DNA of 64,000 bases from Myxococcota bacterium. GTDB lineage: Bacteria > Myxococcota_C > UBA6777. The position numbers and the translations under genes are program-made. A model generated the notes under the pieces. It made no database searches. It saw only the letters and a program-made list of their open reading frames with translations, and was not told the DNA's origin. Position 1 is the stretch's first letter; the number at the start of each line of letters is the position of its first letter. The stretch spans positions 2,411 through 66,410 of the forward strand of contig JAKLKB010000033.1 of assembly GCA_023150835.1 (NCBI GenBank), written 5' to 3'. Below are positions 5,114-64,000 of this stretch, one piece after another.

Positions 5114-5195
5114 CCTGCGTGAGTTGCCTATGCGGGGATTGAGGATTTTTTGATCTTGCGCTAAGACCTGAGGGCTAGCGGCTGAAACACCTAAC

Positions 5196-5322
5196 GATAC
5201 GAAATCCACCCACCGTGTGATCGTCAAACGTAGGAGCAGCCCCCTGTGGCTGCCCAAGAACAGGGCAATTACAGCGGATCGCGTCAACATCGCGATCTCA
5301 CACCACTCGGATATCGTATGAG
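5196..5322 (+). repeat. REP-like intergenic element, copy 1 of 4. Core is 'gatacgaaatcc…gtgtgatcgt…ggggcagcccNNtgtggctgccc…ctcggatatcgtatgag'.
   Basis: Shares the conserved 5' and 3' ends and the GGGCAGCC/GGCTGCCC hairpin with the elements at 19649, 33881 and 54138. All four are in the same orientation. Confidence 0.7.
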
Positions 5323-5333
5323 CAGGTCGCACC

Positions 5334-7730: not shown

Positions 7731-7772
7731 GACGGCAAATCGATCGGTGTATCGGCCTGTTTTGGGGGGAGA

Positions 7773-9521
7773 TCAATCTTTGAATTGGGGGAAGGTGAAG
7801 CTACCGATGGCGCGTTTGAGGGAGAGAGTGGCGACTTCGAGGCTGAGGGTTTCGCGCAGGAGATTGATGCGTGCGGAGTTGAGGGTGTTGTTGGCGTCGG
7901 AGACTTCGAGGGGTGTGGCGACGCCTGTTTTGTAGCGTTCTTCGGTGAGGTTGTAGCTGCGTTCGGCCAAAACGACTTGTTGTCGAGCGGTTTCGATGGA
8001 GGCTTGGGCATTTTTGACGGCGAGCAGGGAGGTGGAGACTTCGTTTTCGACTTGGCGGTGAGTTTTGGCGAGATTGAGTCGGGCTTCGCGCAGTTTGGAT
8101 TCATTTTCTTGGAGGGCTGCGTAGCGAGCGCCACCTTCGTACAGGTTGAGGCTTGCGGACAAGGTGATGGACCACGTTGCATTTTGATCCGTCCCGAAGG
8201 CTCGGAAGTTCCCGACACGCAGAGAGGTTGCAAGAGCGATGGTGGGGATGTAGCGCAACCAGACTTCGGTGACGTTTTTTTCGGCGACTTGGACGGCAAA
8301 GCGGGCGGCTTTGACTTCTTCGCGGAGTTGCTTGGCTTGACTCATCCATGTATCAAGTCCATCCGTCATATCGGGCGGTGGAGCGGGGCGTTTGGGGCGG
8401 AAGCGCATATCGCGTTGGTTGAGCAACAAGGCGAGTGCGAGTTTGGTATTACGCAGCCCTGTTTCGGATTGGATCAGTTGTTGTTGTGCGCTGACCACGT
8501 CCAGTTCAGCGCGGGTGACGGTGAGAGAAGGCGTCACTCCTGCGAGATAACGGGCTTGGGCGATCTGCAAGCGTTCTTCGGCGTTTTGGAGAGTCTGCCG
8601 TGCGATATCGACCAAACCATCGGTCAAGAGGACGCTATAGTAGGCGCGGGTGGCTGCAAACATGATCTCGCGTCGGGCTTGTTTGAGGCTCTCAGCGATC
8701 TGATCCACCGATAGATAGGCCGCTTCCAAGATCGGGATGGCGCGAAGGTTAAAGAACTGCCAGTTTGCTTGGAGTTGGAAGATCAATTGGTCGATGGGGG
8801 TGATGATGGTGGGGGGGGCGTTGGCCATCTCTTCGAGTTGCTTTTTGGTTTCGGCTGGGATGGGAAAACCATCGAACAGCTTGAGCAACGGGCCAAACGA
8901 AGAACCTGTAGAGAACGCGGCTTCGACTTGGTTGCGTACATAGATGCCTTGGGCGGAGACTTGGGGCTTCAAGATCGCCCATGTCTTGTAGCGGATCAGT
9001 TCGGCTTGTACCATCCGCTCGCGCAAGATCTTAAGATCCAAGTTGTCTTTGCGAACCATCTCGTACACTTTGGTGAGATCAAGCTCGGGATCGCTGGCGT
9101 CTGTGCGCGGGCGCAAGGGCGGCTTTTTGATCGCGGTCACTTCTTTGGGGGCGGCGCTCGTGGTTGGCGTTTGCGCCAAGATCGCTGGAGTTGGTTTGAT
9201 TTGAAAAGGGCGTGTTCGGCGCGTTTTGGGCGTCTGTGTGGGCTTTTTGAGGATCAACGCCAAGCGTCGACGAAGTTGACGTTTGGACCATCGCGCTTTG
9301 CTATGGGTGCGATCTCGATCGGCGCGGCGTTTGTTGTATCGCTGTTGCTTCGCTCGGGTGGTTCGCTTCTTTCGATGGATTTCGCGCTTTGCTTGCTTTC
9401 CAAACCTCGTCTGTGTTCGGTCTTTTTGCGATCTTGTTGTGCTGTCTTCCGCCATCGCTGGGCGTCCCCACAAAATGACCGCTACAAAAAACATCCACAA
9501 AAACAACCTCATCCGCTTCAT
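7773..9521 (-). CDS. TolC-family outer membrane efflux protein, with an N-terminal basic K/R-rich extension.
   Basis: Signal peptide 'MKRMRLFLWMFFVAVILWGRPAMA' at the in-frame ATG at 9521. Duplicated OEP helix-barrel repeats ('…ARYLAGVTPSLTVTRAELDVVSAQQQL…'). The longer ORF start at 9710 lacks a signal peptide. Confidence 0.75.
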   Translation of the reverse strand: MKRMRLFLWMFFVAVILWGRPAMAEDSTTRSQKDRTQTRFGKQAKREIHRKKRTTRAKQQRYNKRRADRDRTHSKARWSKRQLRRRLALILKKPTQTPKTRRTRPFQIKPTPAILAQTPTTSAAPKEVTAIKKPPLRPRTDASDPELDLTKVYEMVRKDNLDLKILRERMVQAELIRYKTWAILKPQVSAQGIYVRNQVEAAFSTGSSFGPLLKLFDGFPIPAETKKQLEEMANAPPTIITPIDQLIFQLQANWQFFNLRAIPILEAAYLSVDQIAESLKQARREIMFAATRAYYSVLLTDGLVDIARQTLQNAEERLQIAQARYLAGVTPSLTVTRAELDVVSAQQQLIQSETGLRNTKLALALLLNQRDMRFRPKRPAPPPDMTDGLDTWMSQAKQLREEVKAARFAVQVAEKNVTEVWLRYIPTIALATSLRVGNFRAFGTDQNATWSITLSASLNLYEGGARYAALQENESKLREARLNLAKTHRQVENEVSTSLLAVKNAQASIETARQQVVLAERSYNLTEERYKTGVATPLEVSDANNTLNSARINLLRETLSLEVATLSLKRAIGSFTFPQFKD

Positions 9522-10023
9522 CCACATTCTCCACAGTGATCCAACCCACATCGCTCTTGACACGCTCGCCGCATCGTTTTCGGTCGGTGGACTCAAAAAA
9601 ACGTGTGCAACATTAATCCCCTCCCCCCCGCCTGTCAAGCGCAGGAAAACGATCCTGTCAGCGACGATCTTCTTGGATGGATGGGCTTCTCGAAAAGGTG
9701 CGCATCGCATCGTTCAAGATACGGAACACTCTATTGTTCGCAGCCCCTCGAATGGTTTCGTCGTTTGGAAAACGATCGAATCCTTCGTCGGTATGGGGCC
9801 AAGGGGCGACCGTCTATGGCGGAGTGGGTCCCTCGCTCCATTAAAACGATCTGCGAAACTCCTAACAGGACTTACGCAGTCGCCCAAAAAAGCCGTGTTC
9901 GCACCCGTCCAAGCGAGAACATCGAAGTCGGGGGTTTGGAGAAGGGGGTTTGGGGAGGAAGAAGGGGCGAAGGTGTAAAAAGGGCGGAAGATTGGGAGGG
10001 AAAGATGGATTGTTGGGAGCGGA

Positions 10024-11463
10024 TTAGGGGGCTGTTTGGCAGAAGCCGTCGCTGCCGCATTTTACGCCCGAGGGGCAGTCGCAGTCGGCCTTGCAAGCGA
10101 GTTTGGGTTCATTTTTGGGGGCTTCTGCGCAAACCGAGTCTTGTCCGCACACTTGGCCGGTGGGGCATTCGCAGCTTGCGCGGCAAGATTTGACACAAGC
10201 ATTTTGGCGGCAAACTTGACCGGATTGGCAGCCTGCGTCCGAGCTACAGCCCGATTTGCAGGATTTGGTGGCGGCATCGCAGTATTTGCCGGCTCCACAA
10301 GCAGCGTCAGAGGTGCAACCTTCTTTGCAGGACTTGGTGGTGGCATCGCAGTATTTGCCGGCTCCGCAAGCAGCGTCGGAGGTGCAGCCTGCTTTACAAG
10401 TTCCAGCATCGCAGTATTGTCCGGCTCCGCAAGCAGCGTCAGAGGTACAAGGAGCGGTTTTGCACTGTGTATTTTCGCAGACTTGGCTCGACCCGCAGTC
10501 TTCGTTGCGACGGCAGCCCGTTTTGCAGGTACCGGCTTCGCAGATCTTGCCGGTGCCGCAGTCGGCATCGCGGGTACATTGGGTGGCGGCACATTTTCCG
10601 TTGGTGCAGGCTTGACCGCGAGGACAATCGTTGGTGCTTTTGCAACCATCGACGCATTGGCTAGAAACACAGATCTGTCCGAGTTTGCATTCTTTGTCGC
10701 TTGCACAGGAGGGGAGGCGCTCTTTGCACACGCCGCTGGCACAGATCTTTCCGTCGGCACAATCGGCATCACGGCGGCAACCTTCGGCGCAAGGAGTTCC
10801 GGCGGTTTTGCAGATCGTTCCGAGTTTGCAGTCTGCGTCGGTTTTGCAAGCGTCGGTTTTGCAGCCGCCTTGGATACAGAGTTGGCCATTGCTGCAATCG
10901 TTGTCGGTGTTGCATCCTTGGCGGCACTGATTTTGGCTACAGACTTGGCCGCGAGGACACTCGGCATCAGCGCGACAACCTTCGGCGCAAGTGCCCGAGA
11001 GGCAGATCTTGCCTGTGGTGCAATCTTTGTCCGCAGAGCATTGGGGTTTGGGCGGATCGGTCGGAGCGGGTTTGGTTCCGCCGTTAGGATAGCAGATACC
11101 GTCGCGGCAATCGCAGGGACGATCCAAGCTGCAATCCTTGGCAGTGGTGCAGTTGGGTCGACAGGAGCCTTCGACACAAGATTCGTTGGGAGCGCAGTGG
11201 GTGTTGCGTCGGCATTCTGCGGGAGCGTTGGGATCGACGGTGCAACGGCGCGCCAAACAGACTTGGCCCATCGGGCAATGTGCATCACGGAAACAATCAT
11301 TTTGGGTTTGAGGGGGATTGGTTTGTCCACCGCTACAGTAGGGATCCCAAGAATAGATATCGCAGTAGCTTCCGCCGTGATAACCACAAAAGCAGCCCGT
11401 GAACAGGACGGCGGGTGTAAGGAAAAGACTCATCAGTAGAAAACGGATCTTAACGCGGTTCAT
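10024..11463 (-). CDS. Secreted cysteine-rich repeat protein of the Myxococcus-type cysteine-rich repeat kind, about 20 tandem 'C-x-x-D-x-D-C-x-x-G-Q-x-C-x-x-G-x-C' modules.
   Basis: Signal peptide 'MNRVKIRFLLMSLFLTPAVLFTGC'. RBS 'aaggag' 7 nt upstream. Highly regular Cys spacing across the protein. The antisense ORFs in both other frames are repeat artefacts. Confidence 0.7.
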   Translation of the reverse strand: MNRVKIRFLLMSLFLTPAVLFTGCFCGYHGGSYCDIYSWDPYCSGGQTNPPQTQNDCFRDAHCPMGQVCLARRCTVDPNAPAECRRNTHCAPNESCVEGSCRPNCTTAKDCSLDRPCDCRDGICYPNGGTKPAPTDPPKPQCSADKDCTTGKICLSGTCAEGCRADAECPRGQVCSQNQCRQGCNTDNDCSNGQLCIQGGCKTDACKTDADCKLGTICKTAGTPCAEGCRRDADCADGKICASGVCKERLPSCASDKECKLGQICVSSQCVDGCKSTNDCPRGQACTNGKCAATQCTRDADCGTGKICEAGTCKTGCRRNEDCGSSQVCENTQCKTAPCTSDAACGAGQYCDAGTCKAGCTSDAACGAGKYCDATTKSCKEGCTSDAACGAGKYCDAATKSCKSGCSSDAGCQSGQVCRQNACVKSCRASCECPTGQVCGQDSVCAEAPKNEPKLACKADCDCPSGVKCGSDGFCQTAP

Positions 11464-11857
11464 TGTTTTTCTCCTTCCATGTACTGGAGGTGCCTCGCTG
11501 GCAGTGCGGGCCGCGTGAGTGAGTGAGTTGACGCGATTTTTCTTTCCAACAAATATGCCAAAGATTTGCGATCTTCGTTTTCCTCAGATTTGGCGAAGAA
11601 CACCTGATCGAGGAGGCAGGATCGTTTGTGTGGCTCAGAACGTTGGAAGGGGGCGTGAGCTTACAGTCGGGGCGTCGAAAGTTCTGGTGGGGTGGGGTGA
11701 AAGGCGGCCCCTTGTTGGGGAAAAGGGATGGAGTATCATGGCCAAGCGTTGTGGATAAGGGTTTATCCACAAGGAAGGCTTTCATCCAATCCACCAACGA
11801 ACGCGGGCATCCAACCCGATCTGTTGCATCGATCCGATATTGTGGGGGCTTTTTGAG

Positions 11858-14758
11858 ATGACGATAGAGGAAGAACATCGAGCGCTGTTGCGTGCTGGAC
11901 TCTTGCCCGAAGGCGTAGAGATCGAATCCATCTTGTGGGGGGTGATATCGGGTGGGCGCCTCGAAGGGCGCGAGGGGATCTTGTTTTTGGCGGGAGTGTG
12001 GTGGGGGTTTTATGGTCGTGACTTTGTGTATTTGACGATGTATGCGGGCTTTGTGGGCGCATTGTCAGGACTCTCGCGTTGTGAAGGGCCACTTGTGACA
12101 GGCGACACGATGGAGTCCTATCTTCTCGAAGGGATCGTCGAAGGCGAAGGTCGTTCCGAACAACGCTATTTTTTTACTCCCAACGCAGAGACGTATCGCC
12201 GTCGCCCCGAAGAGATCGCGGCTTTTTTTGCGGCATTGCGCCAACGTGTGAACAATCAGATCCACCCCGATGCTTTGGGTTTGTTTCGCCAAGGGATGGC
12301 GCATTGGGACGCGGGCCACTTGCGGGATGCCGAAGAGCTTCTTGCCGCAGCGGGTCGCATCGATCCGCGAAGTGCGATACCTGCTTTTGTGTTGGGGCAG
12401 TTGTTATTGGAGCAAGGAGGCCGTAGCCGCGAGGCTTTGCAACAATTACAGATCGCTCAACAACGGCTGTTTGAAGATCCCCCTGCCTTGTTCCTTGCGT
12501 TGGCTCAAGCCCATCAACAAGCCGGCGATCTTCGATCGGCTGAGCGCGAAGCTCGGGCATCTCTCCAACACCAAGAAAGCGCAGAAGCGCATTTTTTACT
12601 TGCTGAGATCGCCTCGCAACAGTCGAGACTGCGGGAGCGTGCGCAACATTTGAAGCAGGCCGTTGCGCTTGATCCGAACGGACCCTACGCACCGTGGCTT
12701 GCGTATGATGCCACGCAAGAAAAGGATTGGGGTCACGCACGACAACACCTTTCGCGCCTTTCCAAAGAGCAGCAAAGCCACCCTGCAGCGTTGCTTTCCC
12801 AAGCCTATCTTGCCCATCACGAGGGGCATATCGGTGAGGCGATCGCCCTCGCACGAAAAGCCGCAGCCCAAGATCCCGGACTTGCTGCGGCGTCGCTCGC
12901 CATCGAACGGTGGGATATCTCAAGCGAAACAACGCCAGAACGCACTGCGCCCCAAGAGTCCAGAGAACAAGCAACCGAAACAACTCACCTCGCTGCGGAG
13001 ATGCTGATGTGGCTTCATGAACAAGAACAACGTTTGTCGCGTGAAGAGATCCCTCGGATGCTCCAAGAACTTTCCGCACAGATCGAGATCTTTTCGGAGC
13101 AATGGGGTGCTTATTTGGTGATGTGCTTGTTGCGTGGTGAGTCCCTTGATCAAGCGATGGAAGCGTTGCAATCGCGTCTTCGTGAAGGGATGACCGAACA
13201 AGCGCGGGGGTTTTTGCAGCGAGCGCGAGGCTGGTTGCACGATCAATGGGCGGCTTTCCTCTCACGCGAACAAGAACTGCCCTTGCGCACGGTCGTTGAC
13301 CTCCCTTTCTCGACCGAAGATCCCATCGCGATGACGGGGACATTCACACAACAACAACTGCTGCTGCGTTTGTTTGAACACGCAGAGATCCGCCTTGAGG
13401 CTCTGTTTTCTCAGCTTCTTCAGTGCACGCTGGGTCTTTTGGAGGGGGGGCTGGTGACACTTTTCTTGTTGGAGCTGCAACGTTTCGAGGAACAGCCCGA
13501 CGCGGGGCGTCTCGCTTCTTTGCTGCGTGACCGCTTGCGCCCGATCGCACAACGGCTTGCGATCTACCTCAAGGCGTGGATGCACCAACATATCGATCTC
13601 TTGGAAACGGCGATCGGTCGCCTGTTGGAGCTCCCGATCCCGCCGCACGAACCCTCCCCTCATCTCTCCGAACCTCTGCGGCCTCTCGATGCACCGATCC
13701 TCGCCGAAACATCGGCTCTTGAGATCCCCATGCACCGAGGTGAAACCACTGCTCTCCCTTTGATCTCCGCCTCCCCAACTCTTCACCCTCAAACCTCGGC
13801 ATCTTCGGGAGCCTCGGCATCCTCGGGAGCCTCGGCATCCTCGATCATGTCGGCATCTTCGGCGTCCTCGGCATCCTCCCAAATCTCCAATAATCCGCCT
13901 GTTTATCGGACCGAGCGTGTAGAGGCCCTTCTCGACGCCCCACCCCTCCAAGCTCCGCCGAGTCCGCCTCCCACAAACGCTCCGCCTTCTCGAATCGCCA
14001 GCAAGTCCTCGATCTCTGTCTCCAGCGCCCCCGGGGGAGGGCTGTTCTTTCTGCCCAAACTACCGGGCGAAGATCAACGCTCCGAAGCGATTCCTTCGAC
14101 ACATCGGCCCTCTTCTTCGCCACGCTCGGCTCCTGTGTCCTCTCCCGCAAACACTGTCCCTTCCAAACAGAATCCGCTGTCAGGAGCCGCAAAAGCCTAC
14201 CGCGTCTCTGCGCTGTCGCCTTCTGGCTCAAATCCTCTTTTCTCTTCTTCCGCGTCGGGTCCTTCTTCGCATGCGACTCCTTCGCTTACAGAGCGCGTCT
14301 TGATTACCGCGATCCAGCCCGATACTTCGGACGCCTCTTCTCCTCATGCCCCAGCATCCGAGCCAATCGCTGTTTCGTTGATGACTGCTGCCTCGTCTTC
14401 GGTGCCATCCCTGCGCCACGATGAGACGACAGCACTAGACACTTCGACGCTGCGTCCACAGATTGCTGGGGAAGAAACGCCGCCCACTCCTTTCCCTGCG
14501 GTCGCGGCAGACGAGATCCCACCTGATCCACAAGACGACCCCATCGGATGGGCTTATGCGATGTATCGACGCGCTTTTCAATCGCTCGGCCACGCAGAGC
14601 CACCCACTCCCAAAGAGCGTTTTGTGCGGATTCTCGAAACCAAGGTGCATGCTTGGAAACAACGCACCGGCCAAGATCCCGATATCTACGTGGAGATCGA
14701 ACATGGACGCCCGCAGATCAAGCTGCGCGAGCGCGAAACCCCGAGGAGTCGAACGTGA
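11858..14758 (+). CDS. TPR-containing protein with a long Ser/Pro-rich disordered C-terminal half, including an 'ASSGAS' nucleotide-perfect repeat.
   Basis: The ORF start at 11840 is TTG; the first in-frame ATG is 11858. TPR-like helical region 'LGQLLLEQGGRSREALQQLQIAQ…'. The stop overlaps the GTG start of the next gene (GTGA). Confidence 0.5.
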   Translation: MTIEEEHRALLRAGLLPEGVEIESILWGVISGGRLEGREGILFLAGVWWGFYGRDFVYLTMYAGFVGALSGLSRCEGPLVTGDTMESYLLEGIVEGEGRSEQRYFFTPNAETYRRRPEEIAAFFAALRQRVNNQIHPDALGLFRQGMAHWDAGHLRDAEELLAAAGRIDPRSAIPAFVLGQLLLEQGGRSREALQQLQIAQQRLFEDPPALFLALAQAHQQAGDLRSAEREARASLQHQESAEAHFLLAEIASQQSRLRERAQHLKQAVALDPNGPYAPWLAYDATQEKDWGHARQHLSRLSKEQQSHPAALLSQAYLAHHEGHIGEAIALARKAAAQDPGLAAASLAIERWDISSETTPERTAPQESREQATETTHLAAEMLMWLHEQEQRLSREEIPRMLQELSAQIEIFSEQWGAYLVMCLLRGESLDQAMEALQSRLREGMTEQARGFLQRARGWLHDQWAAFLSREQELPLRTVVDLPFSTEDPIAMTGTFTQQQLLLRLFEHAEIRLEALFSQLLQCTLGLLEGGLVTLFLLELQRFEEQPDAGRLASLLRDRLRPIAQRLAIYLKAWMHQHIDLLETAIGRLLELPIPPHEPSPHLSEPLRPLDAPILAETSALEIPMHRGETTALPLISASPTLHPQTSASSGASASSGASASSIMSASSASSASSQISNNPPVYRTERVEALLDAPPLQAPPSPPPTNAPPSRIASKSSISVSSAPGGGLFFLPKLPGEDQRSEAIPSTHRPSSSPRSAPVSSPANTVPSKQNPLSGAAKAYRVSALSPSGSNPLFSSSASGPSSHATPSLTERVLITAIQPDTSDASSPHAPASEPIAVSLMTAASSSVPSLRHDETTALDTSTLRPQIAGEETPPTPFPAVAADEIPPDPQDDPIGWAYAMYRRAFQSLGHAEPPTPKERFVRILETKVHAWKQRTGQDPDIYVEIEHGRPQIKLRERETPRSRT

Positions 14759-17505
14759 TCGGCCAACCTATCGTTGCTCTCCCCCCTCTCCAAGACATCC
14801 CCTTCTCCGACTTCCCTTTGCAACTCCCTTCCCGCATCCGCGATCCACACGCTCGCTTTCACCACCAAAAAGGCCCCGCTCGTGTCCTCGCAAGCGAACA
14901 CCAGTGCTATCTTCATCTGCTCTTGCCCTACCACCAAGGGCTTTTTCCCCGCTGGTGGGCCTTGCGCTGGATGCACGAAGTCGAGGAGTTGGAAAAACGC
15001 CCTGCCCAACAAGAGCTTTTTTTCCAAGTCTGCGCGTTGGATATCCGCCGCTGTCAGGGCTGGGTCGAGATCGAATACACCTTCCCGCTTGAACACTTTC
15101 TCTCCGATGCGCAGATGCGCGCTGCACGCGATCTTGCGGGACTCGATCTGGCTTTGTGGGAGCGCTTTTGCGAGATCGGGGCGACCGATATCTGCCAAGA
15201 CGCCGAAGAAGACGCGCTGATCGCATGGATGGCGCGTTTGCATATGCTGGTTGCCGAGCGCATGATCCATCCCTTGTTGTGCGGAGATGTCCGCGATCTC
15301 AAAGCGATATCGTCCTTTGTGCGCGCAGACCTCGAAAAAATGGAGCGCTTTCGCTCTCCTTCGGGCTTTGTCGAACTGGTCTTCGATCAAGAAGTCCAAC
15401 AGTTTTTGTGTGACTTCGAGGAGATGCGCTCACACGGCGACGCTGATCTCGCCCACGATTCTCTCCAAGATATGCTCCACCGCCATCCACAACACGCCGC
15501 GTTGCTAGAGATCGCCGCACGCGAAGCCCTCGAACAACACAACCCCCGCCGCGCCTTACAACACCTCCAGCACGCTTTGCTCGATGATTGTTTTCCCCGA
15601 AAAGACCGACTTTTTTTACTCCGTGCCAAAGCACACCAATCCCTCCACCAAGACCAAGACGCCCTCCAAGAACTCGAACAAGCTCTACTCCAAAACCCCG
15701 CACAGATGGACGTTTGGTTGATTCGGGCTGAGATCTTTTCGCAACAGCAGCAACACGCTCGCGCCCAACGTTGCCTTGACTCGCTGCGTGAACAAGCACC
15801 CGCATGGCGCGGTCTCCATTTCCAATACGCTCTTCTTGCCCAACATCAGGGACTTCTAAAAGAGGCGCTTGATGCTTTCCGCGCAGAAGTCGAATTCCAT
15901 CCCGATCATCAAGAAGCGATCTCTGCTGTGTTGGATCTGGCCCAACAACGGGGAGATCATGCCTTATACAAGCTCTATGCTCGCAAGCGCGACCGCCTCG
16001 CACACAAACAACGAAAAAGCGCTGCCGCGTACACTTCGTCTGTTTCGTTTGAAGATCTCGAGGCGCTTTGTTGCCAAGCCGAAGCGTTGTTTTCGTCTCC
16101 TGTTCGTCGTTGGAGATCAGCGTTTTCTTCTTCGGATGAATCGGATGCTTTTGATGCGGACGCTTATCACGACGACGATATCCCCCTCGAAGAGGCCCTG
16201 TATTGGGCCGATGATACGCCTTGGATAGACTCTGTTCTTGAGTATGGCCCCGCTTCGTCAGATATCTTTTCCTCGGAAGATCCGACCTCTTCTCGCTTTG
16301 ATGTTTTTTCTTCGGAAGATCCGACATCTTCTCGCTTTGATGCTTTTTCTTCGGAAGATCCGACATCTTCTCGCTTTGATGCTTTTTCTTCGGAAGATCC
16401 GACCTCTTCTCGCTTTTTGGAAGGCTCTTCACCTTCTGATCGGTATGATACCGCTTGTCGGCCTCGATCTTTTGGGGGCTTTGTCGCCCCTCAAAAAAAG
16501 TACACGCCTGTTCCTGAAAAGCCCGTTGTCAAGCACACGCCTGTTTCTGAAAGGCAAGCCTTCAAGTACGCGCCTGTTTCTCAAAAGCAGGAGATCGCGT
16601 TGCCTGCGGGTTGTTTTGCGGTAGACGATTCGTTTTTTGCGCGTCTCGGCAGTTTTCGCTACCACGGGATCGGGATTGCTTATGAGGGAGCAACGTACCG
16701 TGTCTCGATGGTGTTTCGCCACCTCGATATCCCATTGCCACAACTACAGTCGTTGGCGTTTCGGCGCGATGTTGCGCGGTTGTTGATCGAACGAGAAGGC
16801 GATGACGTGATCGTGTTGTTGCGCCTTTTTCCAAAACCGCATCTGGATGTGCAGCAGTGGTTGTCTCGATGGGGGCTCGGAGAAGTGCCTTTGATCGCGG
16901 AGTGCCTAGAGCCTTCGGAGATCCGCTGCTCGCCTTCTGCCCGATGGGATCAACTTTATCGACGTCTGCTTGCGGTGATGATGGATGAGGTACGCGAGGC
17001 ATTGTTGCGCGGCGACCTGATGCCCTTGCGAGAGATCTCTCTTTGGCTCCAAGGCATCCGCCCAGAGAGCCATCCACAAATCCCTCTCTACACGGGACTT
17101 TCCACACACGATAGATCTTGTCCCAAGACCCACCCTGTGGCGTTGCACTTTTCTTCCATCCTTGAACAGCTTTTCGCCTACACACCCGCCGATCAGAGGT
17201 TGGCGCTTGGTGTGGAAGACTCTCTCCTTGTCGATGATCTGGGCCTTCTTCCCGGACTTTTCACGCCTCACCCTGAATCAAAACTCTTGCAGCTCGAAGA
17301 GATCCGTTTGCTTGCTTCTCACGATCCCCTCGCCGCGTTCTCTCGCCTTGCCCAATATACGCTCCAATATCGCCTATCTTCCGCTCTGTATGCACTCAAA
17401 GCTGAGATCTGCGATGCGCTGCTGCGCGCTCTCCCCGCCTCTTTGGAGTCCTCCGCTGTGCGCAACATCCAGTCTCGCGCTCTGTTGTTGCGAGATTCTT
17501 TTTAA
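14755..17505 (+). CDS. Hypothetical protein with a TPR-like region and two internal tandem repeats ('SSEDPTSSRFDAF' x4, 'KYTPVPEKPVV' x3).
   Basis: GTG at 14755 is preceded by 'gaggag' 7 nt upstream and overlaps the upstream stop (GTGA), implying translational coupling. The supplied ORF start at 14548 would overlap the previous gene by 210 nt. Confidence 0.5.
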   Translation: MIGQPIVALPPLQDIPFSDFPLQLPSRIRDPHARFHHQKGPARVLASEHQCYLHLLLPYHQGLFPRWWALRWMHEVEELEKRPAQQELFFQVCALDIRRCQGWVEIEYTFPLEHFLSDAQMRAARDLAGLDLALWERFCEIGATDICQDAEEDALIAWMARLHMLVAERMIHPLLCGDVRDLKAISSFVRADLEKMERFRSPSGFVELVFDQEVQQFLCDFEEMRSHGDADLAHDSLQDMLHRHPQHAALLEIAAREALEQHNPRRALQHLQHALLDDCFPRKDRLFLLRAKAHQSLHQDQDALQELEQALLQNPAQMDVWLIRAEIFSQQQQHARAQRCLDSLREQAPAWRGLHFQYALLAQHQGLLKEALDAFRAEVEFHPDHQEAISAVLDLAQQRGDHALYKLYARKRDRLAHKQRKSAAAYTSSVSFEDLEALCCQAEALFSSPVRRWRSAFSSSDESDAFDADAYHDDDIPLEEALYWADDTPWIDSVLEYGPASSDIFSSEDPTSSRFDVFSSEDPTSSRFDAFSSEDPTSSRFDAFSSEDPTSSRFLEGSSPSDRYDTACRPRSFGGFVAPQKKYTPVPEKPVVKHTPVSERQAFKYAPVSQKQEIALPAGCFAVDDSFFARLGSFRYHGIGIAYEGATYRVSMVFRHLDIPLPQLQSLAFRRDVARLLIEREGDDVIVLLRLFPKPHLDVQQWLSRWGLGEVPLIAECLEPSEIRCSPSARWDQLYRRLLAVMMDEVREALLRGDLMPLREISLWLQGIRPESHPQIPLYTGLSTHDRSCPKTHPVALHFSSILEQLFAYTPADQRLALGVEDSLLVDDLGLLPGLFTPHPESKLLQLEEIRLLASHDPLAAFSRLAQYTLQYRLSSALYALKAEICDALLRALPASLESSAVRNIQSRALLLRDSF

Positions 17506-29400: not shown

Positions 29401-29500
29401 TTGCGGCTTTGTTGGAGTGCAGAAGCCCAAAGGGCGGCCAATGTAGGCGGTTGCAAAGAGAAGCGGCGCAGTAGACAAAACCCCCGTCATCGCGCACTTT

Positions 29501-29616
29501 CAAGCGGAGCCGCTGTGGGTTTGAAAAGCGTCAGATCGGTCCGCCAACACGGGGTCAAGGGGCGACAGTCCCTTGTGGGGAGTGGGGCAAAGCCCCACAA
29601 CATCTATCCAACAAGT
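29501..29616 (+). repeat. Structured repeat family 'A': 'caagcggagc…ccgccaacacggggtcaaggggcNacaggtcccttgtgggg' plus a 'GGGG…CCCCACAA…CCATCCAACAAGT' tail.
   Basis: ~85% identical to 33527..33609. The tail motif recurs at 30464 and 33847. Two hairpins in tandem (CAAGGG/CCCTTG and GTGGGG/CCCCAC). Confidence 0.6.
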
Positions 29617-33880: not shown

Positions 33881-34000
33881 GATACGAAATCCGCAGGGAG
33901 CGTGATCGTAAAAATGTAGGGGCAGCCCCCTGTGGCTGCCCTATTACAGGGCGTCTACGCACTCTCCATTGCGCACACATCATCCGGATATCGTATAAGT
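33881..34000 (+). repeat. REP-like intergenic element, copy 3 of 4.
   Basis: 'gatacgaaatccgcagggagcgtgatcgtaaaaatgtaggggcagccccctgtggctgccc…ccggatatcgtataag'. Confidence 0.7.
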
Positions 34001-36920: not shown

Positions 36921-37035
36921 TGCGGTTGAAAAGGAAAACCCTGAGATATCAGAACGTTGTAGGGGCGGTTCGCGAACCGCCCACGCCCGAACATCTGCCT
37001 TTTTCGTATCGAACTGCGTAAGTCCTATACAGACT
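36921..37035 (+). mobile_element. MITE-like element, copy 1: terminal inverted repeats 'TACGCAGTTGAAAAGG…CCTTTTTCGTATCGAACTGCGTA' around a 20-bp perfect palindrome 'GGGCGGTTCGCGAACCGCCC'.
   Basis: ~88% identical to 59279..59395 over ~115 bp. No ORF. Confidence 0.65.
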
Positions 37036-59194: not shown

Positions 59195-59278
59195 GAACGT
59201 CAACGCTCGCTAAAAAAGACAGTCGTTTCCGGCTAACGCTCGGGTGGCCCCACTTGTTTTGCTGATTCGAAATAGGAG

Positions 59279-59395
59279 TTACGCAGTTGAAAAGGAAAAC
59301 CCTGAGATGTCAGCACATTATTAGGGGCGGTTCGCCAACCGCCCGCGCCCGAACATGGCCCTTTTTCGTATCCAACTGCGTAAGTCCTATCGAAA
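59279..59395 (+). mobile_element. MITE-like element, copy 2 (same family as 36921..37035).
   Basis: 'tacgcagttgaaaaggaaaaccctgagatgtcagcacattattaggggcggttcgccaaccgcccgcgcccgaacatggccctttttcgtatccaactgcgta'. Confidence 0.65.
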
Positions 59396-59455
59396 TATAT
59401 TTGTTTTCGGACACCTTGAACCCGAGCTGTTGCCATCGGGGAGACGGAGAGCAAG

Positions 59456-60652
59456 ATGCCAAAAACGCGGGAGTATATACTTACGCTTTTTCTATCCGCC
59501 CTGTTTTTTTCTTTTGCTCTCGCGCATGGTTGTGGAGAGTCAAAAATTCCAGAAAAAATGGAGCCAGATTCAAGTGTTTCTGAACATTTTATGGATAATA
59601 TAAATAAAGAAAGTAGTCATTCTTCTGAAGCAATCTGTACAAGTTTGTGTGTTCAGGTTTTTGCAGGAGCGCCCGATCAATTTGGAGATTTGGATGGCCT
59701 ATTAAATGCTGCAAGATTCAACTATCTGACCGATCTCCTCGAAACGAAAGACGCGATCTATCTGGTTGATCGCAATAACCACAAGATCAAAGTGATCAAG
59801 GACGGAAAAAGTAGGACGCTGGCAGGAACGGGACAGGAAGGGTACAAAGACGGCGCAGGAAACGAGGCCATGTTCAGTTTTCCCTTCGGCGCGGCATTAG
59901 ACTCCAAAGGAAATCTGTTTGTCACAGAGTTGGGAGCAGGCCGGATCAGACGGATCTCTCCAAACGGGGTCGTTTCTACACTCGCGGGCGGACGTTCCTT
60001 TGGATTTCAAGACGGGTTCGGAGACGAAGCACTCTTTTCTTACTCGATGGCTGATATTTCTATTGATCATCAAGATAACCTCTATGTTTCAGATTCCTAT
60101 AACGTTTCTATTCGAAAAATTACACCAGACGGAGACGTCACAACCATCGGATACGGCAAATCTATTTTTTTGAAAAATAAAGAAAAGCAGTTGCGTGGTC
60201 AGCCTGTTGAGTTCCCGTTGCAACAACCCACGTCTTTAAAGTTCGACACGGAAGGTCGGTTGTACATCGCTGATTGGGAAGGAAACTCGATCTGGCGTAT
60301 CGAGAAATCGGGAGAGGTTGCTCGGTTCGCAGGGACGGGAGAGCGAGGAGATAAAGACGGTCCGAGACAGGAGGCCGAGTTGTTCCGCGTTAATTCGCTT
60401 GCGTTCCATCGAAACGGTGAATTGTTCTTTGCAGAATCTGGCAATCGTAAAATCAAAAAAATTGATACCGCAGGACAAGTGAAAACTGTTGTTTCATCAG
60501 TTACAGGAGTTCTTCGTGGTGCATTACCCATCCCAATAGGAAACATTTTGGATATGGAGTTCGCCGAAGATGGCTCCCTTTATTTCATCGAAGCGAATTT
60601 CCATGTTGTGCGTAAGCTATGGCTGAATTGTGATTGTCCTTTACGGCTCTAA
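59456..60652 (+). CDS. NHL-repeat beta-propeller lipoprotein. The lower-GC region begins here.
   Basis: Lipobox 'SFALAHGCGES'. Repeated 'LYV(S/A)D…N(x)I(R/W)(K/R)I' NHL blades. AT-richer codon usage than the preceding 59 kb. Confidence 0.65.
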   Translation: MPKTREYILTLFLSALFFSFALAHGCGESKIPEKMEPDSSVSEHFMDNINKESSHSSEAICTSLCVQVFAGAPDQFGDLDGLLNAARFNYLTDLLETKDAIYLVDRNNHKIKVIKDGKSRTLAGTGQEGYKDGAGNEAMFSFPFGAALDSKGNLFVTELGAGRIRRISPNGVVSTLAGGRSFGFQDGFGDEALFSYSMADISIDHQDNLYVSDSYNVSIRKITPDGDVTTIGYGKSIFLKNKEKQLRGQPVEFPLQQPTSLKFDTEGRLYIADWEGNSIWRIEKSGEVARFAGTGERGDKDGPRQEAELFRVNSLAFHRNGELFFAESGNRKIKKIDTAGQVKTVVSSVTGVLRGALPIPIGNILDMEFAEDGSLYFIEANFHVVRKLWLNCDCPLRL

Positions 60653-60699
60653 CGAGAGTCCTTCGAAAAGAGAGCGAAATGGAACTTTCATACTTCGAA

Positions 60700-61687
60700 A
60701 CGTGAGTTCGAGCTAAAAAGGTAAGCATTTCTGTTCAGTTACACGAATATTAAGAGAAGGTTTCTCGGGCATCATCGAATAACAGACCAAACCAGACAGA
60801 AGATTGACGAAAAAATTGTAAGGGCTACGGTGGCGCGTGTGGTCGATTTGGCAAACGTGTTTCAGATGTTCGTTGACCGTTTCAATAAATACCCGCTTTC
60901 CAAGAACAAGCGAGTCAAACAAAGTCATCAAACGAGGTTTCATGTTCTTACGCATCGTCGTCACAAGAGAGATTCCTTTTGCGTATAAGTCCTCGAATAA
61001 ATCTTGCGAGATGTATCCACGATCCCCATAGAGTCGGCCAAAAAGACCGTGCATCATATCGGGGACAAGGCTGCGGTCATCGACGTTGGCTTTTGTGATG
61101 CGAAAAGCAAGCAGCTCGCCAATGTCGTTGACAACGAGGTGTAGCTTGAAGCCAAAAAACCAGCCCACGGAATCTTTGCTCCACGAAGCCAACCCTGCGA
61201 AGGTTTTATGGGATTTCGCACGTTTGACATACGAGACGACGAGCTTGGTCGAGTCGACAAAAGAGATGCCGCTGCATTCCCCGAGCAGGGAATGGGCGAG
61301 AAAGTACATGGGGATCATCGCCTCCTTCTGGAGTTCGACAAATCTTTGATAACTTGGAAGATTTGGGAAGCAGGAAGCCCATGCCACGCAAACATGACGA
61401 AGGTAAAAGCCCTTGAGATCGCGATATCGGCTTTGGTGGAACATCACAAGTACCGTCATGACTTCACTTGTGTGCATCTTCCGCTTTCTTTTTGCGACGG
61501 AAAACTCCATCTCTTCGACGTAATCCGTCCAATCCTTCTCGAAGGCTTGATAAAAATCATCGACATGGCAAAAGATTTCGGTTAGATCCATGAGCGTACC
61601 CCTTGCTTTCTTTGGGTGTTCGTTTTGCAACTACACTTTGCCAGAGAAAACAAGCGGGTACAACTTTTTTCTTGCTCGAACTCACGT
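60700..61687. mobile_element. IS982-family insertion sequence (~988 bp) with 14-bp perfect terminal inverted repeats 'ACGTGAGTTCGAGC'.
   Basis: 'acgtgagttcgagc' at 60700..60713. Its reverse complement 'gctcgaactcacgt' at 61674..61687. A single transposase ORF fills the interior. Confidence 0.75.
60713..61591 (-). CDS. IS982-family DDE transposase.
   Basis: 'MDLTEIFCHVDDFYQ…' N-terminus. 'FVDSTKL…', 'GYIS' DDE-region motifs typical of IS982. ATG 61591 with 'aagggg'; the supplied ORF start is TTG. Confidence 0.8.
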   Translation of the reverse strand: MDLTEIFCHVDDFYQAFEKDWTDYVEEMEFSVAKRKRKMHTSEVMTVLVMFHQSRYRDLKGFYLRHVCVAWASCFPNLPSYQRFVELQKEAMIPMYFLAHSLLGECSGISFVDSTKLVVSYVKRAKSHKTFAGLASWSKDSVGWFFGFKLHLVVNDIGELLAFRITKANVDDRSLVPDMMHGLFGRLYGDRGYISQDLFEDLYAKGISLVTTMRKNMKPRLMTLFDSLVLGKRVFIETVNEHLKHVCQIDHTRHRSPYNFFVNLLSGLVCYSMMPEKPSLNIRVTEQKCLPF

Positions 61688-61865
61688 AAAATTAGAGTGG
61701 CGGAAGTTCTGTTCTATTTGTTCGGTGTTCTCGTGGGATGGGGTAGCAAGTGAAGTTCGCAAAATTAGAGTGGCGGAAAATCTGTTCTGTTTGTTCGGAA
61801 AGAACAGTAGCACGCGAAGTTCGGAAAATTAGAGGATTGGAAGTTCTGTTCTATTTGTTCGATGA
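61688..61865 (+). repeat. Three ~60-bp tandem units ('aagttcgNaaaattagagtggcggaagttctgttctatttgttcgg…'). The first abuts the IS right end.
   Basis: Units start at ~61688, 61755 and 61819. An internal CTGTTCT…AGAACAG hairpin sits in unit 2. Confidence 0.7.
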
Positions 61866-62039
61866 GGTGACGTAGAGAGACCGCCCCGAATCCCCCAGTG
61901 ATGTGCGGCGCCAACGCCGCGATCACGTGCGGCCCCCCACGAGGCCAAGAATGAGTAGAGGGGGGCCGTCACGTGGATCCGACTTGTTGGACGGAAGTTT
62001 CATTTCGGATGTTTGCAAGAGAAGAAGTGCGATAAGGAA

Positions 62040-62350
62040 TCTTCACAAATGCGAAGGCAAAAAGAATTTCGCGGGAAAAGCTGTTCACATCCCGAAGGGC
62101 GCGAGGTTTCAAGCGATGTTCGATTTGGTTTGTTCGCGGGATGCGGAGGCAAGGGGAAATACGCGGTCAAGTCTATTTACCCTCCGAAGGGCAGGGCGTT
62201 TCAGGAAAAGATCGCTTTGAATGGTTCGCGGGATGCGGAGGCAAGGGGAAATACGCGGTCAATCTTGTTCACACGCCGAAGGGCAGGAGGTTTCAGGAAA
62301 AGATCGATTCGATTTGTTCGGAAAGAACGGTAGCAAGGCGAGAGCAGAAA
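62040..62350 (+). repeat. Mosaic repeat block 'Y' (internally duplicated). Homologous to block 'Z' at 63620..63840 on the other side of the GTPase gene.
   Basis: Shared modules 'gttcacaNNccgaagggcNNgNggtttcaNg', 'gttcgcgggatgcggaggcaaggggaaatacgcggtcaa' (x2 exact) and the tail 'atttgttcggaaagaacggtagcaaggcga'. Confidence 0.7.
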
Positions 62351-62377
62351 AATCGGATACTTTTTTGAACGCTCGAT

Positions 62378-63457
62378 TTAATTTCCTGCCAACTTTTGCT
62401 TGAAAGCGTACGCAATTTGCTCGGCCGTTGGAGATTTGGATGGATCGTCTTTCAAAAGTAAATAGAGCGTTCCTATGTAGGCTTCGCCGAAAGCGGTAGT
62501 AAGTGCGATAGAAGTTCCAGCAGCAATGGTTCCACCCACGAGACTCCCCACACCGGGGATCAATTTTAGTAACGAACTGACAATTGCCCGCCCAGCAACT
62601 GTTGCTGCCACCCCTGTAAAGGTACTAGCAACCAACGTGCTGATAAAAACTTGGGACACGGGGAGACCAAAAGCGGCGCTGATACCCGCCAACATCCCGA
62701 CCTGTACAGGAACAATCAATATTGCGTCTGAAAATGGAATTGGAGTGGCAGCAGCGGCACCTGCGACTGTTGCACTTGCTGCCACCACCGTATGAGCACG
62801 GTTGACTTTTTGCTCAAGGCTGACTTTTTGTGCTGCCGCGAATGCGTTTTTTTGACTCTCCGGGACGAGTTCCATTGTTAACTCGACTAATTCCTTGAGA
62901 CCTTTTACCGAAATTTTATGACCATCATCAAAGATTTCTTCGACAGCATGAACGCTTATAACATTGCGTGCTTTGGGGAGTATCTTTTGAACTTCTGCGC
63001 GGAAGCCTTTATCCGCTTTTGCTTTCGTAATCACAACAACAGTGGGGATATGAGCTGACAACATTTCAACGAGTTGTATTTCTCCTTCTTCGACTCTTCT
63101 CGAATCCTCGGAGATACAAACCCATGCAACGTGCATATGACGATGGGCTTCTGTTTCTTGCTTTCGCTCTTCAATGAATTTTTGCAAGGAGTTGACGGTT
63201 TGTTTGTATTCTGCGAGTTCTAGCCCTCTCGTGTCGAACAATGAAACAGGAATTCCTTCTTTGGTGATTTCTCTTGTGTTTTGTGTCACAGGGCGTCCTT
63301 GTCCTGTTTCTGCCAAATTTCCTTGGAACACTGCGTTGATCAATGTGCTTTTACCAACACCTGTTTTCCCTGCCAGAATAATGTTCACTTTGCCTCGGCG
63401 TTTTAATGCTTCTTCCACAGCGTTTTTTACAGTATCAATCAAGCCCGGATCCAACAT
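62378..63457 (-). CDS. GTP-binding protein with an N-terminal Era/EngA-like (MMR_HSR1) GTPase domain and a C-terminal Gly/Ala-rich hydrophobic DUF697-like domain.
   Basis: G1 'LAGKTGVGKST'. G3 'DTRG'. C-terminus 'AGAAAATPIPFSDAILIVPVQVGMLAGISAAFGLPVS…'. ATG 63457 with 'aagaggag' 5 nt upstream; the supplied ORF start is TTG. Lower GC. Confidence 0.7.
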   Translation of the reverse strand: MLDPGLIDTVKNAVEEALKRRGKVNIILAGKTGVGKSTLINAVFQGNLAETGQGRPVTQNTREITKEGIPVSLFDTRGLELAEYKQTVNSLQKFIEERKQETEAHRHMHVAWVCISEDSRRVEEGEIQLVEMLSAHIPTVVVITKAKADKGFRAEVQKILPKARNVISVHAVEEIFDDGHKISVKGLKELVELTMELVPESQKNAFAAAQKVSLEQKVNRAHTVVAASATVAGAAAATPIPFSDAILIVPVQVGMLAGISAAFGLPVSQVFISTLVASTFTGVAATVAGRAIVSSLLKLIPGVGSLVGGTIAAGTSIALTTAFGEAYIGTLYLLLKDDPSKSPTAEQIAYAFKQKLAGN

Positions 63458-63619
63458 TTCAACTCCTCTTCGTTTTTCAGTTTTTTCTGCGAACAACCAC
63501 TATATCTTTTGGCTCGGAGATAACCAAAAGTCAAGTTTTTTCTTCTACCGCTTGTTGTTTAAAGATAGCAAATAGAGACCAGAAAAGAGAAGAATGGACA
63601 GCTTGTTATTAAATCTTCA

Positions 63620-63840
63620 CAACGTGCATAGGCAAAAAGAACAACGCAGGAAAAGATGTTCACACCCCGAAGGGCGCGAAGTTTCAAGAGAACATCGGTT
63701 GGGGATGTTCGCGGGAGGCGGAGGCAAGGGAAGATACGAGAGAAAGTCTATTAAAATGCCGAAGGGCAGGAGGTTTCAGGAGAACACCGCTTCGATTTGT
63801 TCGGAGAGACCGACGCAAGCGAAGGATTCTCGCTCGCTCT
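63620..63840 (+). repeat. Mosaic repeat block 'Z', collinear with Y at ~75-80% identity and without indels.
   Basis: 'gcaaaaagaacaacgcaggaaaagatgttcacaccccgaagggcgcgaagtttcaag…gttcgcgggaggcggaggcaaggg…gccgaagggcaggaggtttcagg…atttgttcggagagaccgacgcaagcga'. Confidence 0.7.
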
Positions 63841-64000
63841 CGCTGGCAAGTCTTAGCGCTCAAAACATTTTTTTCTTGGCTCATGTTGTGTTTTGAGGTC
63901 TTCTAAGGTACCTCATGAGCGACGTTTTTGATCGAGTGGGTCCGTTCAAACCAACCTCAGCTAGGGCAACCACAGGGGGTTGCCCCTACATGTTGGAAAT

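Follow-up and report, generated by a model that had tools for sequence, protein, structure and literature searches.

A probable integron-type gene-cassette remnant with a GTPase-DUF697 gene and a long repeat scaffold in an uncultured Myxococcota bacterium

A complete integron consists of an integrase gene, intI, beside an attI site and a cassette array, with intI and the array in divergent orientation; clusters of attC sites lacking integrases (CALINs) are defined by at least two attC sites without an integrase. Reports describe CALINs as common and include integron attC sites from Myxococcota (PMC9668308); integron cassettes with defence genes are a current theme (bioRxiv 10.1101/2024.07.02.601719; PMC12614218). 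Both attC and attI sites are cut at AA/C (G/TT) (PMC5027507). Here we describe a locus near the end of a 64,000-nt stretch of the Myxococcota bacterium assembly GCA_023150835.1 (contig JAKLKB010000033.1; this whole stretch is called the window in the following), where a gene for a GTPase with a DUF697-like tail stands between two direct repeats, Y and Z, close to an insertion sequence of the IS982 family. We consider it likely that an integron-type gene-cassette array, of a kind typical of an uncultured Myxococcota lineage, has left a short remnant or satellite at 59.3-63.9 kb, with the GTPase-DUF697 gene as putative cassette cargo. The kind of element is already known; what is unusual is its weak R box and its conserved scaffold, which in every cassette amounts to roughly a kilobase or more of ordered tandem repeats flanking the cargo.

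The attC-like hairpin and its cassette

The locus is built from a family of repeat modules (64-nt X units, 92-nt A and B units, Ztail, link, and a GC-rich element, G) that surround unrelated low-GC genes. Y (62040-62350) consists of three 92-nt units, A, B and B, and Z (63612-63877) of A, B and a tail; as a sequence-only reading of this DNA had proposed, the two are homologous direct repeats, about 80% identical over 192 nt (E 7e-35; none expected by chance), with a longest identical run of 24 nt. Between the X array and Y lies the GC-rich and hairpin-rich element G (61862-62040); neither the X array nor G had been flagged in that reading. Followed from the right on the minus strand, the locus would begin with a truncated leader, Z (Ztail, B, A), 154 nt of unique sequence and the GTPase gene; a trailer (tail, B, B, A, preR) and the attC-like site (61992-61909) would come next. 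Past the crossover point of this site would lie the start of the next cassette (postR and three X units), later hit by IS982, and this leader, together with a 47-nt link-like spacer, would abut the 3' end of an NHL-repeat protein gene on the other strand. The features of the cassette are as follows.

61688..61861, minus strand: X array, three 64-nt tandem units of which the first is truncated by IS982, 5' leader of the next cassette (repeat comparison)
61862..61908, minus strand: postR, conserved segment immediately 3' of the crossover point (alignment and module map)
61909..61992, minus strand (the top strand of the site is the minus strand of the window): attC-like site, core of G, 84-nt hairpin (fold, boxes and homology breaks)
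61992-61986, minus strand: R'' of the attC-like site, GTCCAAC, fits RYYYAAC
61985-61980, minus strand: spacer of 6 nt, unpaired
61979-61960, minus strand: arm of 20 nt, stem
61959-61939, minus strand: terminal loop of 21 nt
61938-61921, minus strand: arm of 18 nt, stem
61920-61916, minus strand: spacer of 5 nt, unpaired
61915-61909, minus strand: R', GTTGGCG, fits GTTRRRY at five of seven positions
61993..62377, minus strand: cassette trailer, with preR (61993-62040), A (62051-62142), B (62143-62234), B (62235-62326) and tail (repeat comparison)
62378..63457, minus strand: cassette cargo, a 359-aa GTPase with a septin-like or immunity-related-GTPase (IRG)-like G domain and a DUF697/YcjF-like hydrophobic helical tail (Pfam, AlphaFold2 and Foldseek)
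63458..63611, minus strand: unique 5' region of the GTPase gene, 154 nt, presumed promoter and 5' untranslated region (no match at any other locus)
63612..63877, minus strand: leader fragment Z, with A (63626-63717), B (63718-63809) and Ztail (63809-63877) (module map)

The best evidence that 61909-61992 is a recombination site rather than a mere hairpin comes from the position at which the homology between its copies stops. On the plus strand, ordinary copies of G continue as CCAAC/GCCGCGATC; the G copy closest to an integrase in a related contig (L027, at about 12313) breaks after CCAAC and reads CCAAC/AATTTATT (in a longer reading, CCAAC/AATTTATTAAGC), and another related locus, L018 (at 188), breaks at the same base, CCAAC/CAGTTG (in a longer reading, CCAAC/CAGTTGTTAGG), with the stop codon of a gene 13 nt away. 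In three junction types, homology ends exactly at the GTT/AAC triplet, which is the AA/C or G/TT crossover position of integron sites.

The structure of the hairpin is consistent with this assignment. An attC site was taken to be an imperfect single-stranded DNA (ssDNA) hairpin of about 57-141 nt, with complementary R'' (RYYYAAC) and R' (GTTRRRY) boxes, extrahelical bases in the L'' arm, and an unpaired central spacer. The 84-nt hairpin falls in this size range; its ssDNA fold has z-scores of -6.0 (plus strand) and -5.5 (minus strand), and none of 200 shuffles was as stable. Among 12 copies from six sources, 97.6% of the cells in the alignment are paired, vs. 36-51% when the partners are slid; a compensatory change from T-A to C-G affects one pair of the stem and is carried by two copies. 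On the plus (bottom) strand, two extrahelical bases, G 61975 and T 61969, occupy the L'' arm with the G nearer to the R box; this is the order of G16 and T23, the extrahelical bases on the L'' arm of attCaadA7 (PMC5027507). Further parts are shared with attCaadA7 and with sites of the VCR (Vibrio cholerae repeat) type: the R box and the L stem, a central spacer that stays unpaired, a terminal loop that varies, and AAC at the cut site (PMC5027507); in contrast to these, the L stem of the site is GC-rich and 18 bp long, its R box is weak, and a competing hairpin forms around R'.

The GTPase gene (-) is followed by its trailer and the attC-like site on the same strand, as in a gene cassette, and the NHL gene is not. 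The hairpin at 61909-61992 is the likely mobilisation site. In an intact integron, IntI would fold the bottom strand of attC (the plus strand of the window), cut at AA/C in the R box (61913-61915), and then excise or insert the unit between consecutive attC sites.

Module arrays and an integron integrase in related contigs

The same modules occur around unrelated cargo elsewhere, and Y and Z are therefore not a private pair. Scanning metagenomes with the tail motif common to X and Y picked up nine contigs; X, G, A, B and tail modules are present in seven of them, at loci whose unique sequence differs; a search in protein space with a spurious open reading frame (ORF) across G-A-B gave ten more matches, including L031 and L032, and two of its matches led to the 198-kb NCBI contig CAWKUZ010000011.1, of which L027 is a stretch. 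A scan of species-representative genomes with the Y/Z core motif gave six matches; five were chance single matches in unrelated taxa, and the sole true relative was L006, a locus of the Myxococcota metagenome-assembled genome (MAG) KLAP109; the genome of the window is itself absent from this collection. The module map, drawn from the window, L006, L018, L019, L020, L022, L025 and CAWKUZ010000011.1, has a fixed order, (P or A) B(n) Ztail link B' X(n) postR attC preR A B(n) cargo, which then repeats. Z in the window is truncated; it lacks the link, B', the X array and the preceding attC that the other loci have next.

Relative to the '+' orientation of the modules, cargo is on the opposite strand, with the attC-like site 3' of the ORF; this applies to the GTPase gene and to the cargo of L018, L019, L020, L022 (two genes) and L025 (two genes). 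As usual in chromosomal integrons, the cargo set comprises small, diverse and often unannotated genes, gene fragments, and cassettes without cargo; among its members are a HEAT-repeat protein (L018), a 260-aa lipoprotein (L020), secreted proteins of 449 and 121 aa (L022), a membrane protein and an HNH nuclease (L025), and a DUF4145 protein (L019, 545-1243, minus strand) with a match to PD-T7-4, a PADLOC model for defence against phages (E 1.7e-18). At L018 1-102, directly before a truncated X unit, a perfect 12-bp inverted repeat (ATAGCGCTCCCC ... GGGGAGCGCTAT) surrounds 78 nt.

In CAWKUZ010000011.1, positions 1996-16743 are occupied by a single array in which the same modules all point one way; its seven G copies are spaced at 1.4-4 kb, and its GC content is 0.30-0.51, vs. 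about 0.54 beyond the array. Between 1.5 and 1.9 kb past the last G copy lies the gene of a tyrosine recombinase, on the strand opposite to the cargo and thus divergent. This recombinase scores 329 bits against NCBIfam TIGR02249, 'integron integrase' (cut-off 265), and its residues 14-307 align without large gaps to residues 12-307 of VchIntIA (2A3V; E 1.9e-58); the alignment includes the segment equivalent to VchIntIA LPTALKEKYPNAPYEFRWHYLFPS, which we take to be the IntI-specific insertion. In its predicted gene layout, an integrase divergent from a co-oriented cassette array, the contig is canonical. The locus in the window may derive from a larger array of this kind, and its attC-like site may be, or may once have been, recombined by an integrase of the L027 type. 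The annotated integrase ORF has a 120-aa N-terminal extension of tandem repeats (L027 13851-14225, NQTENHIDTPISQKV-like), and its IntI-homologous part begins with MTWIVVYRLL.

The related array also holds three near-identical cargo-less cassettes of 1.39-1.61 kb (L027 6090-9900, about 10.5-14.3 kb of the contig), which contain a further tandem repeat type and ORF artefacts whose translation shows a FPCYRTIRTFRT-like periodicity; L027 10250-10950 is rich in purines and G tracts. In the cargo-less cassettes an A/B hybrid unit is fused straight to Ztail, and a scaffold of about 1.4 kb is conserved. Such A/B-Ztail fusions are the product expected from recombination between B units, so that excision between Y and Z would be possible in principle; with only 24 nt in the longest identical run, it would be inefficient in the window. 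B units of the Y/Z type may be able to delete or swap cargo by homologous recombination. The wider proposal, that the cassettes of this lineage are built on a repeat scaffold of about 1.4 kb that adds a second route for the loss, swap and perhaps capture of cargo via the flanking B units, is tentative and on balance doubtful; the scaffold repeats might also be regulatory or insulating elements. Should this proposal be right, the cargo-less scaffolds would be 'ready-made' cassettes and offer a rare view of cassette generation. A contribution of the scaffold to the exchange or the expression of cargo would have a bearing on how cassettes form.

The X units (52, from 10 sequences) and the B units (20) are at least 90% conserved at most positions, which points to either concerted evolution or some function; the ends of X units resemble the ends of B units. 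A, B and X units have folding z-scores of about 0 on both strands and no significant secondary structure, and are therefore not additional attC sites; on the same grounds, they were rejected as attC-like hairpins and as structured RNAs. The ORFs in the repeats (for example 62013-62333 and 63594-63896) were rejected as real small proteins, the periods of 92 and 64 nt not being multiples of three. An Rfam scan of 59-64 kb (E<=1) found nothing beyond a chance miRNA match, a viral-contig scan with the Y/Z core motif found nothing, and neither did a search of PLSDB with the X-G-Y DNA. Assemblies break at the repeats: L001, a Logan contig with the GTPase gene, ends inside Y and Z, and L006 ends at the start of Y. 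Since the repeats fragment short-read assemblies, such arrays are probably under-counted in surveys of MAGs.

In two further contigs, L023 and L026 (WBZL01027783.1 and JAANMU010008391.1), a single X-X-postR-attC block adjoins a large Rep/HTH-like ORF, and in L026 the block also adjoins ParE/Phd-like and BrnT/BrnA-like toxin-antitoxin pairs; the setting may be a plasmid or another integron context. Both copies carry the compensatory stem change.

Several observations weigh against an integron-type origin. The window has one attC-like site, and a tblastn search for an integrase across its 64 kb found none; with one attC and no integrase, the locus is neither a complete integron nor a CALIN, which leaves a remnant or satellite. 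The integrase is linked to the genome of the window through related contigs and not through the same assembly, and in the related contig intI stands 1.5-1.9 kb from the end of the array, an unusually long distance. A size of 1.4-4 kb, of which about 1 kb is conserved non-coding repeat sequence, is atypical of cassettes. Within the site itself, R' (GTTGGCG) matches GTTRRRY at five of seven positions, R'' and R' can pair over 5 bp only, and the minimum-energy fold favours a local hairpin, GCGGCG-TTGG-CGCCGC, over the R box. The attC copies are 92% identical and 195 of 500 shuffles reach the observed pair count; with copies so alike, the support from covariation is thin. Finally, the NHL gene points the 'wrong' way and lacks its own attC.

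The insertion sequence, alternative explanations and the edges of the island

To the left of the cassette, the island continues with three features.

59456..60652, plus strand: NHL-repeat beta-propeller protein, probable lipoprotein (Pfam NHL and TEN_NHL; GC content at third codon positions, GC3, 0.42)
60653..60699, no strand assigned: 47-nt spacer after the NHL stop codon, link-like (98% identical to L006)
60700..61687, minus strand: IS982-family insertion sequence, 988 bp (NF033520 and inverted repeats)

The intact IS982 element of the sequence-only reading is borne out: the transposase (60713-61630, minus strand), of the DDE type found in this family, scores 229 bits against NF033520 (cut-off 130), and the terminal inverted repeats ACGTGAGTTCGAGC and GCTCGAACTCACGT are perfect over 14 bp (60700-60713 and 61674-61687); no clear target-site duplication was found in the sequence. 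The element sits in the first X unit and is present as a single copy in the window; a second flanking copy, as in a composite transposon, was not found there. The junction of NHL gene and IS982 is present in six Logan contigs of the same organism, from six sequencing runs; the organism is contained in SRR17665585, SRR31850039/40/43, SRR26088205 and SRR36479850. Look-ups of exact protein matches (GTPase, NHL, transposase, P0001) led to short Logan contigs only. At this site IS982 is absent from L006, and its insertion was therefore later and secondary; it plays no part in cassette mobility. A derivation of the X units from the ends of IS982, or a targeting of X units via end similarity, was considered and rejected, as local alignments were no better than those of shuffles.

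These observations bear on an alternative in which a single gene is mobilised by its own long direct repeats and/or by the adjacent IS982, independently of an integron. Direct repeats do flank one gene here, cargo-less A/B-Ztail fusions exist in the related array, and the insertion sequence is intact; yet one copy of the latter makes no composite transposon, L006 has the repeats without the insertion sequence at this site, the IS982 ends are unlike the repeats, no run of identity between Y and Z exceeds 24 nt, and the modules, which stand around many unrelated genes, are linked with both an attC-like site and an integron integrase. We regard this alternative as unlikely. The sequence-only reading had seen a mobile-type cassette in Y, Z and the gene between them; its foreign composition, the mobile type of the gene and the relevance of the flanking repeats hold, whereas Y and Z as a unique bracket, and a role for IS982, do not.

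BOX elements of Streptococcus pneumoniae and BIMEs (bacterial interspersed mosaic elements) of enterobacteria are modular intergenic repeats that form mosaics with variable numbers of internal tandem units. The A-B(n) architecture with its variable copy number resembles BOX, and the modules could be repeats of this kind without integron function, in which case G would be similar to repetitive extragenic palindromes (REP) and the adjacency to an integrase coincidental. Consistent with this, A, B and X form no hairpin, the window has no integrase, and the host has other small repeats, such as an element at 59272-59390 that resembles miniature inverted-repeat transposable elements (MITEs), and REP-like hairpins. 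However, none of the modules was found in the other 59 kb (core genome) of the window; their order and orientation relative to G and cargo are strict, homology ends precisely at GTT/AAC in three contexts, and the neighbour in the related contig is an integron-type integrase, above a curated cut-off and in canonical divergent orientation. Dispersed repeats of the BOX or BIME kind are accordingly a very improbable explanation. Tandem small RNAs or cis-regulatory RNA elements as products of the repeats are a more remote possibility still: the strong conservation of X and B units (52 and 20 units) and a terminator-like hairpin with a UUCG loop on the minus strand of an A unit (63680-63659) speak for this reading, but Rfam gave no match at E<=1 except the chance miRNA, folding z-scores are about 0, the repeats contain no promoter-like sites, and the terminator-like hairpin is not conserved in B units.

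The island also stands out by its composition: GC drops at 59.3 kb, from about 0.55 to 0.47. The AT-ward shift from about 59.4 kb that the sequence-only reading had described was confirmed: in 2-kb windows, GC is 0.52-0.59 up to 59 kb and 0.467-0.491 from there to the end, and GC3 is 0.42 in the NHL gene, 0.40 in the GTPase gene and 0.55 in the IS982 transposase, vs. 0.51-0.68 in 27 other large ORFs.

The island is not private to this genome; NHL gene, X array and G occupy the same locus in the Myxococcota MAG with L006, whose core genes are syntenic with those of the window (udk, a GYF-domain gene, and NHL) at about 91% identity. There, the NHL gene is directly followed by a longer X array (about seven units) and then by G, without IS982, and the contig stops exactly where Y would begin. 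The last kilobase of the NHL gene and its flank, 59715-60699, is 99-100% identical to L006, vs. about 91% for the flanking core; the identity switches inside the NHL gene near 59.7 kb, and the 5' part of the gene and the sequence upstream diverge like the core. Near-identity next to flanks at about 91% points to a recent exchange of this end of the island, and judged by this identity profile the 3' kilobase of NHL is a tract of recent recombination or transfer. The NHL gene lies at the edge of the array, in an orientation opposite to the cassette cargo, and its stop codon abuts scaffold sequence; it is either a former cassette or a low-GC flanking gene. The spacer that follows (60653..60699) resembles, by eye and without statistics, the link module of L022 (3040-3090). 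That the NHL gene encodes a lipoprotein had been claimed before; the NHL and TEN_NHL matches agree with the NHL part of this claim, and the N-terminus MPKTREYILTLFLSALFFSFALAHGC (...FALAHGC) resembles, again by eye, a signal peptide with a lipobox cysteine.

Upstream of the NHL gene stands the MITE-like element mentioned above, about 115 bp long with terminal inverted repeats ATAGGAGTTACGCAGTTG; its copies at 59272-59390 and 36922-37028 are 89% identical. The copy near NHL has CGAA on both flanks, and the same site is empty in L006; its absence there and the second copy at 36922-37028 mark it as a separate, MITE-like insertion.

On the right, it is doubtful that the window ends inside the island, as had been thought. 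Module homology stops at 63877, no match to the repeat family lies to the right of this position, and a core-type hairpin repeat follows at 63962-63994. This intergenic, REP-like repeat (GGGCAACC..GGTTGCCC) also occurs at 33911-33943 and 5230-5255; its two occurrences in the core genome make it likely that the island is over near 63.9 kb. The right edge, judged on 120 bases, is thus probably near this position, and the repeat suggests that host-type sequence resumes at the far end of the window. Another small host repeat is probably represented by a stretch of 105 nt that is 78% identical between the core of the window (29493-29597) and the spacer between array end and intI in CAWKUZ010000011.1 (17043-17150).

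The cargo gene and comparison with known systems

The presence of a GTPase with a DUF697-like tail, already proposed from the sequence, was upheld by profile searches: MMR_HSR1 reaches 44.9 bits (cut-off 21.9), DUF697 at 27.1 bits falls marginally short of the Pfam cut-off of 27.7, and precomputed Pfam annotation assigns PF05128 (DUF697) to the identical protein and to almost all of the 120 homologues listed. More than 3600 homologues share the same fused architecture, the nearest being 62-63% identical; their hosts include Myxococcus, Hyalangium, cyanobacteria, Anaerolineae and others, and they are named 'YcjF family protein', 'DUF697 domain-containing protein' or '50S ribosome-binding GTPase'. 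The homologues are stand-alone genes, and their surroundings in Myxococcus, a further MAG and an Enterobacter plasmid showed no conserved neighbourhood. Homologues with about 41% identity occur on 78 plasmids; on the Enterobacter IncFIB plasmid, the homologue is a lone, oppositely oriented gene among phage-like genes. A promoter scan found no consensus sigma-70 site upstream of the GTPase gene or in the repeats.

The AlphaFold model (predicted local distance difference test score, pLDDT, 82.5) has a G domain followed by long helical hairpins, with hydrophobic segments at residues 231-314. Its best Foldseek matches are the IRGs Irga6/IIGP1/Irgb6 and septins, at TM-scores (template modelling scores) of about 0.4, which confine the likeness mostly to the G domain. 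Our best guess is a nucleotide-regulated, self-associating, membrane-acting GTPase; more speculatively, GTPase-DUF697, which has an IRG/septin-like G domain and is also found on phage-plasmid-like replicons, could be a membrane-acting defence or stress gene. As a member of a known defence family it was rejected, PADLOC having given only P-loop-level matches (LeoBC, 29.9 bits; mad8). In Escherichia coli, ycjX and ycjF are adjacent, separate genes with a link to sigma-32, frequently located close to psp operons (PMC3041696). Like YcjF/YcjX of E. coli, the protein in the window combines a hydrophobic helical region of the DUF697 type with a P-loop NTPase; unlike these, its GTPase is of the MMR_HSR1, septin/IRG-like type and not YcjX, the two parts are fused, and the gene is cassette-borne.

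With the reading as an integron cassette, an unexplained gene between two repeats becomes recognisable, and the GTPase-DUF697 family is placed in an exchangeable pool of accessory genes, beside a defence-type cassette in the same array family. The locus also indicates that chromosomal integrons of uncultured Myxococcota can bear long, highly conserved tandem-repeat scaffolds around their cassettes, of which standard attC-centred tools would report the hairpin only.

Compared to BOX and BIMEs, the modules of the window are likewise mosaics, of the form A-B(n)-tail; in contrast to these, they are not dispersed in the core genome, keep one orientation to the cargo, and are tied to an attC-like site and an integrase. 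The closest likeness is to sedentary chromosomal integrons and CALINs, such as the superintegron of V. cholerae with its VCRs, in which co-oriented, diverse small genes also lie between near-identical, lineage-specific repeats. As in these systems, an imperfect hairpin is part of each repeat, with extrahelical bases and a spacer that stays unpaired in addition to GTT/AAC boxes; one end of the array (in the related contig) has a divergent integrase, and the composition differs from that of the host. The related arrays further share with chromosomal integrons their gene fragments, empty and duplicated cassettes, a defence-type gene, and repeats that break short-read assemblies. In contrast to chromosomal integrons, there is just one attC at the locus in the window, no integrase lies within 59 kb of it, and the gap in the related contig spans 1.5-1.9 kb; the R box, with R' GTTGGCG, pairs over 5 bp only; and the conserved repeat goes beyond an attC of 60-140 nt to form a non-coding scaffold, about 1.4 kb long in the cargo-less cassettes, with 64- and 92-nt tandem units on both sides of the cargo.

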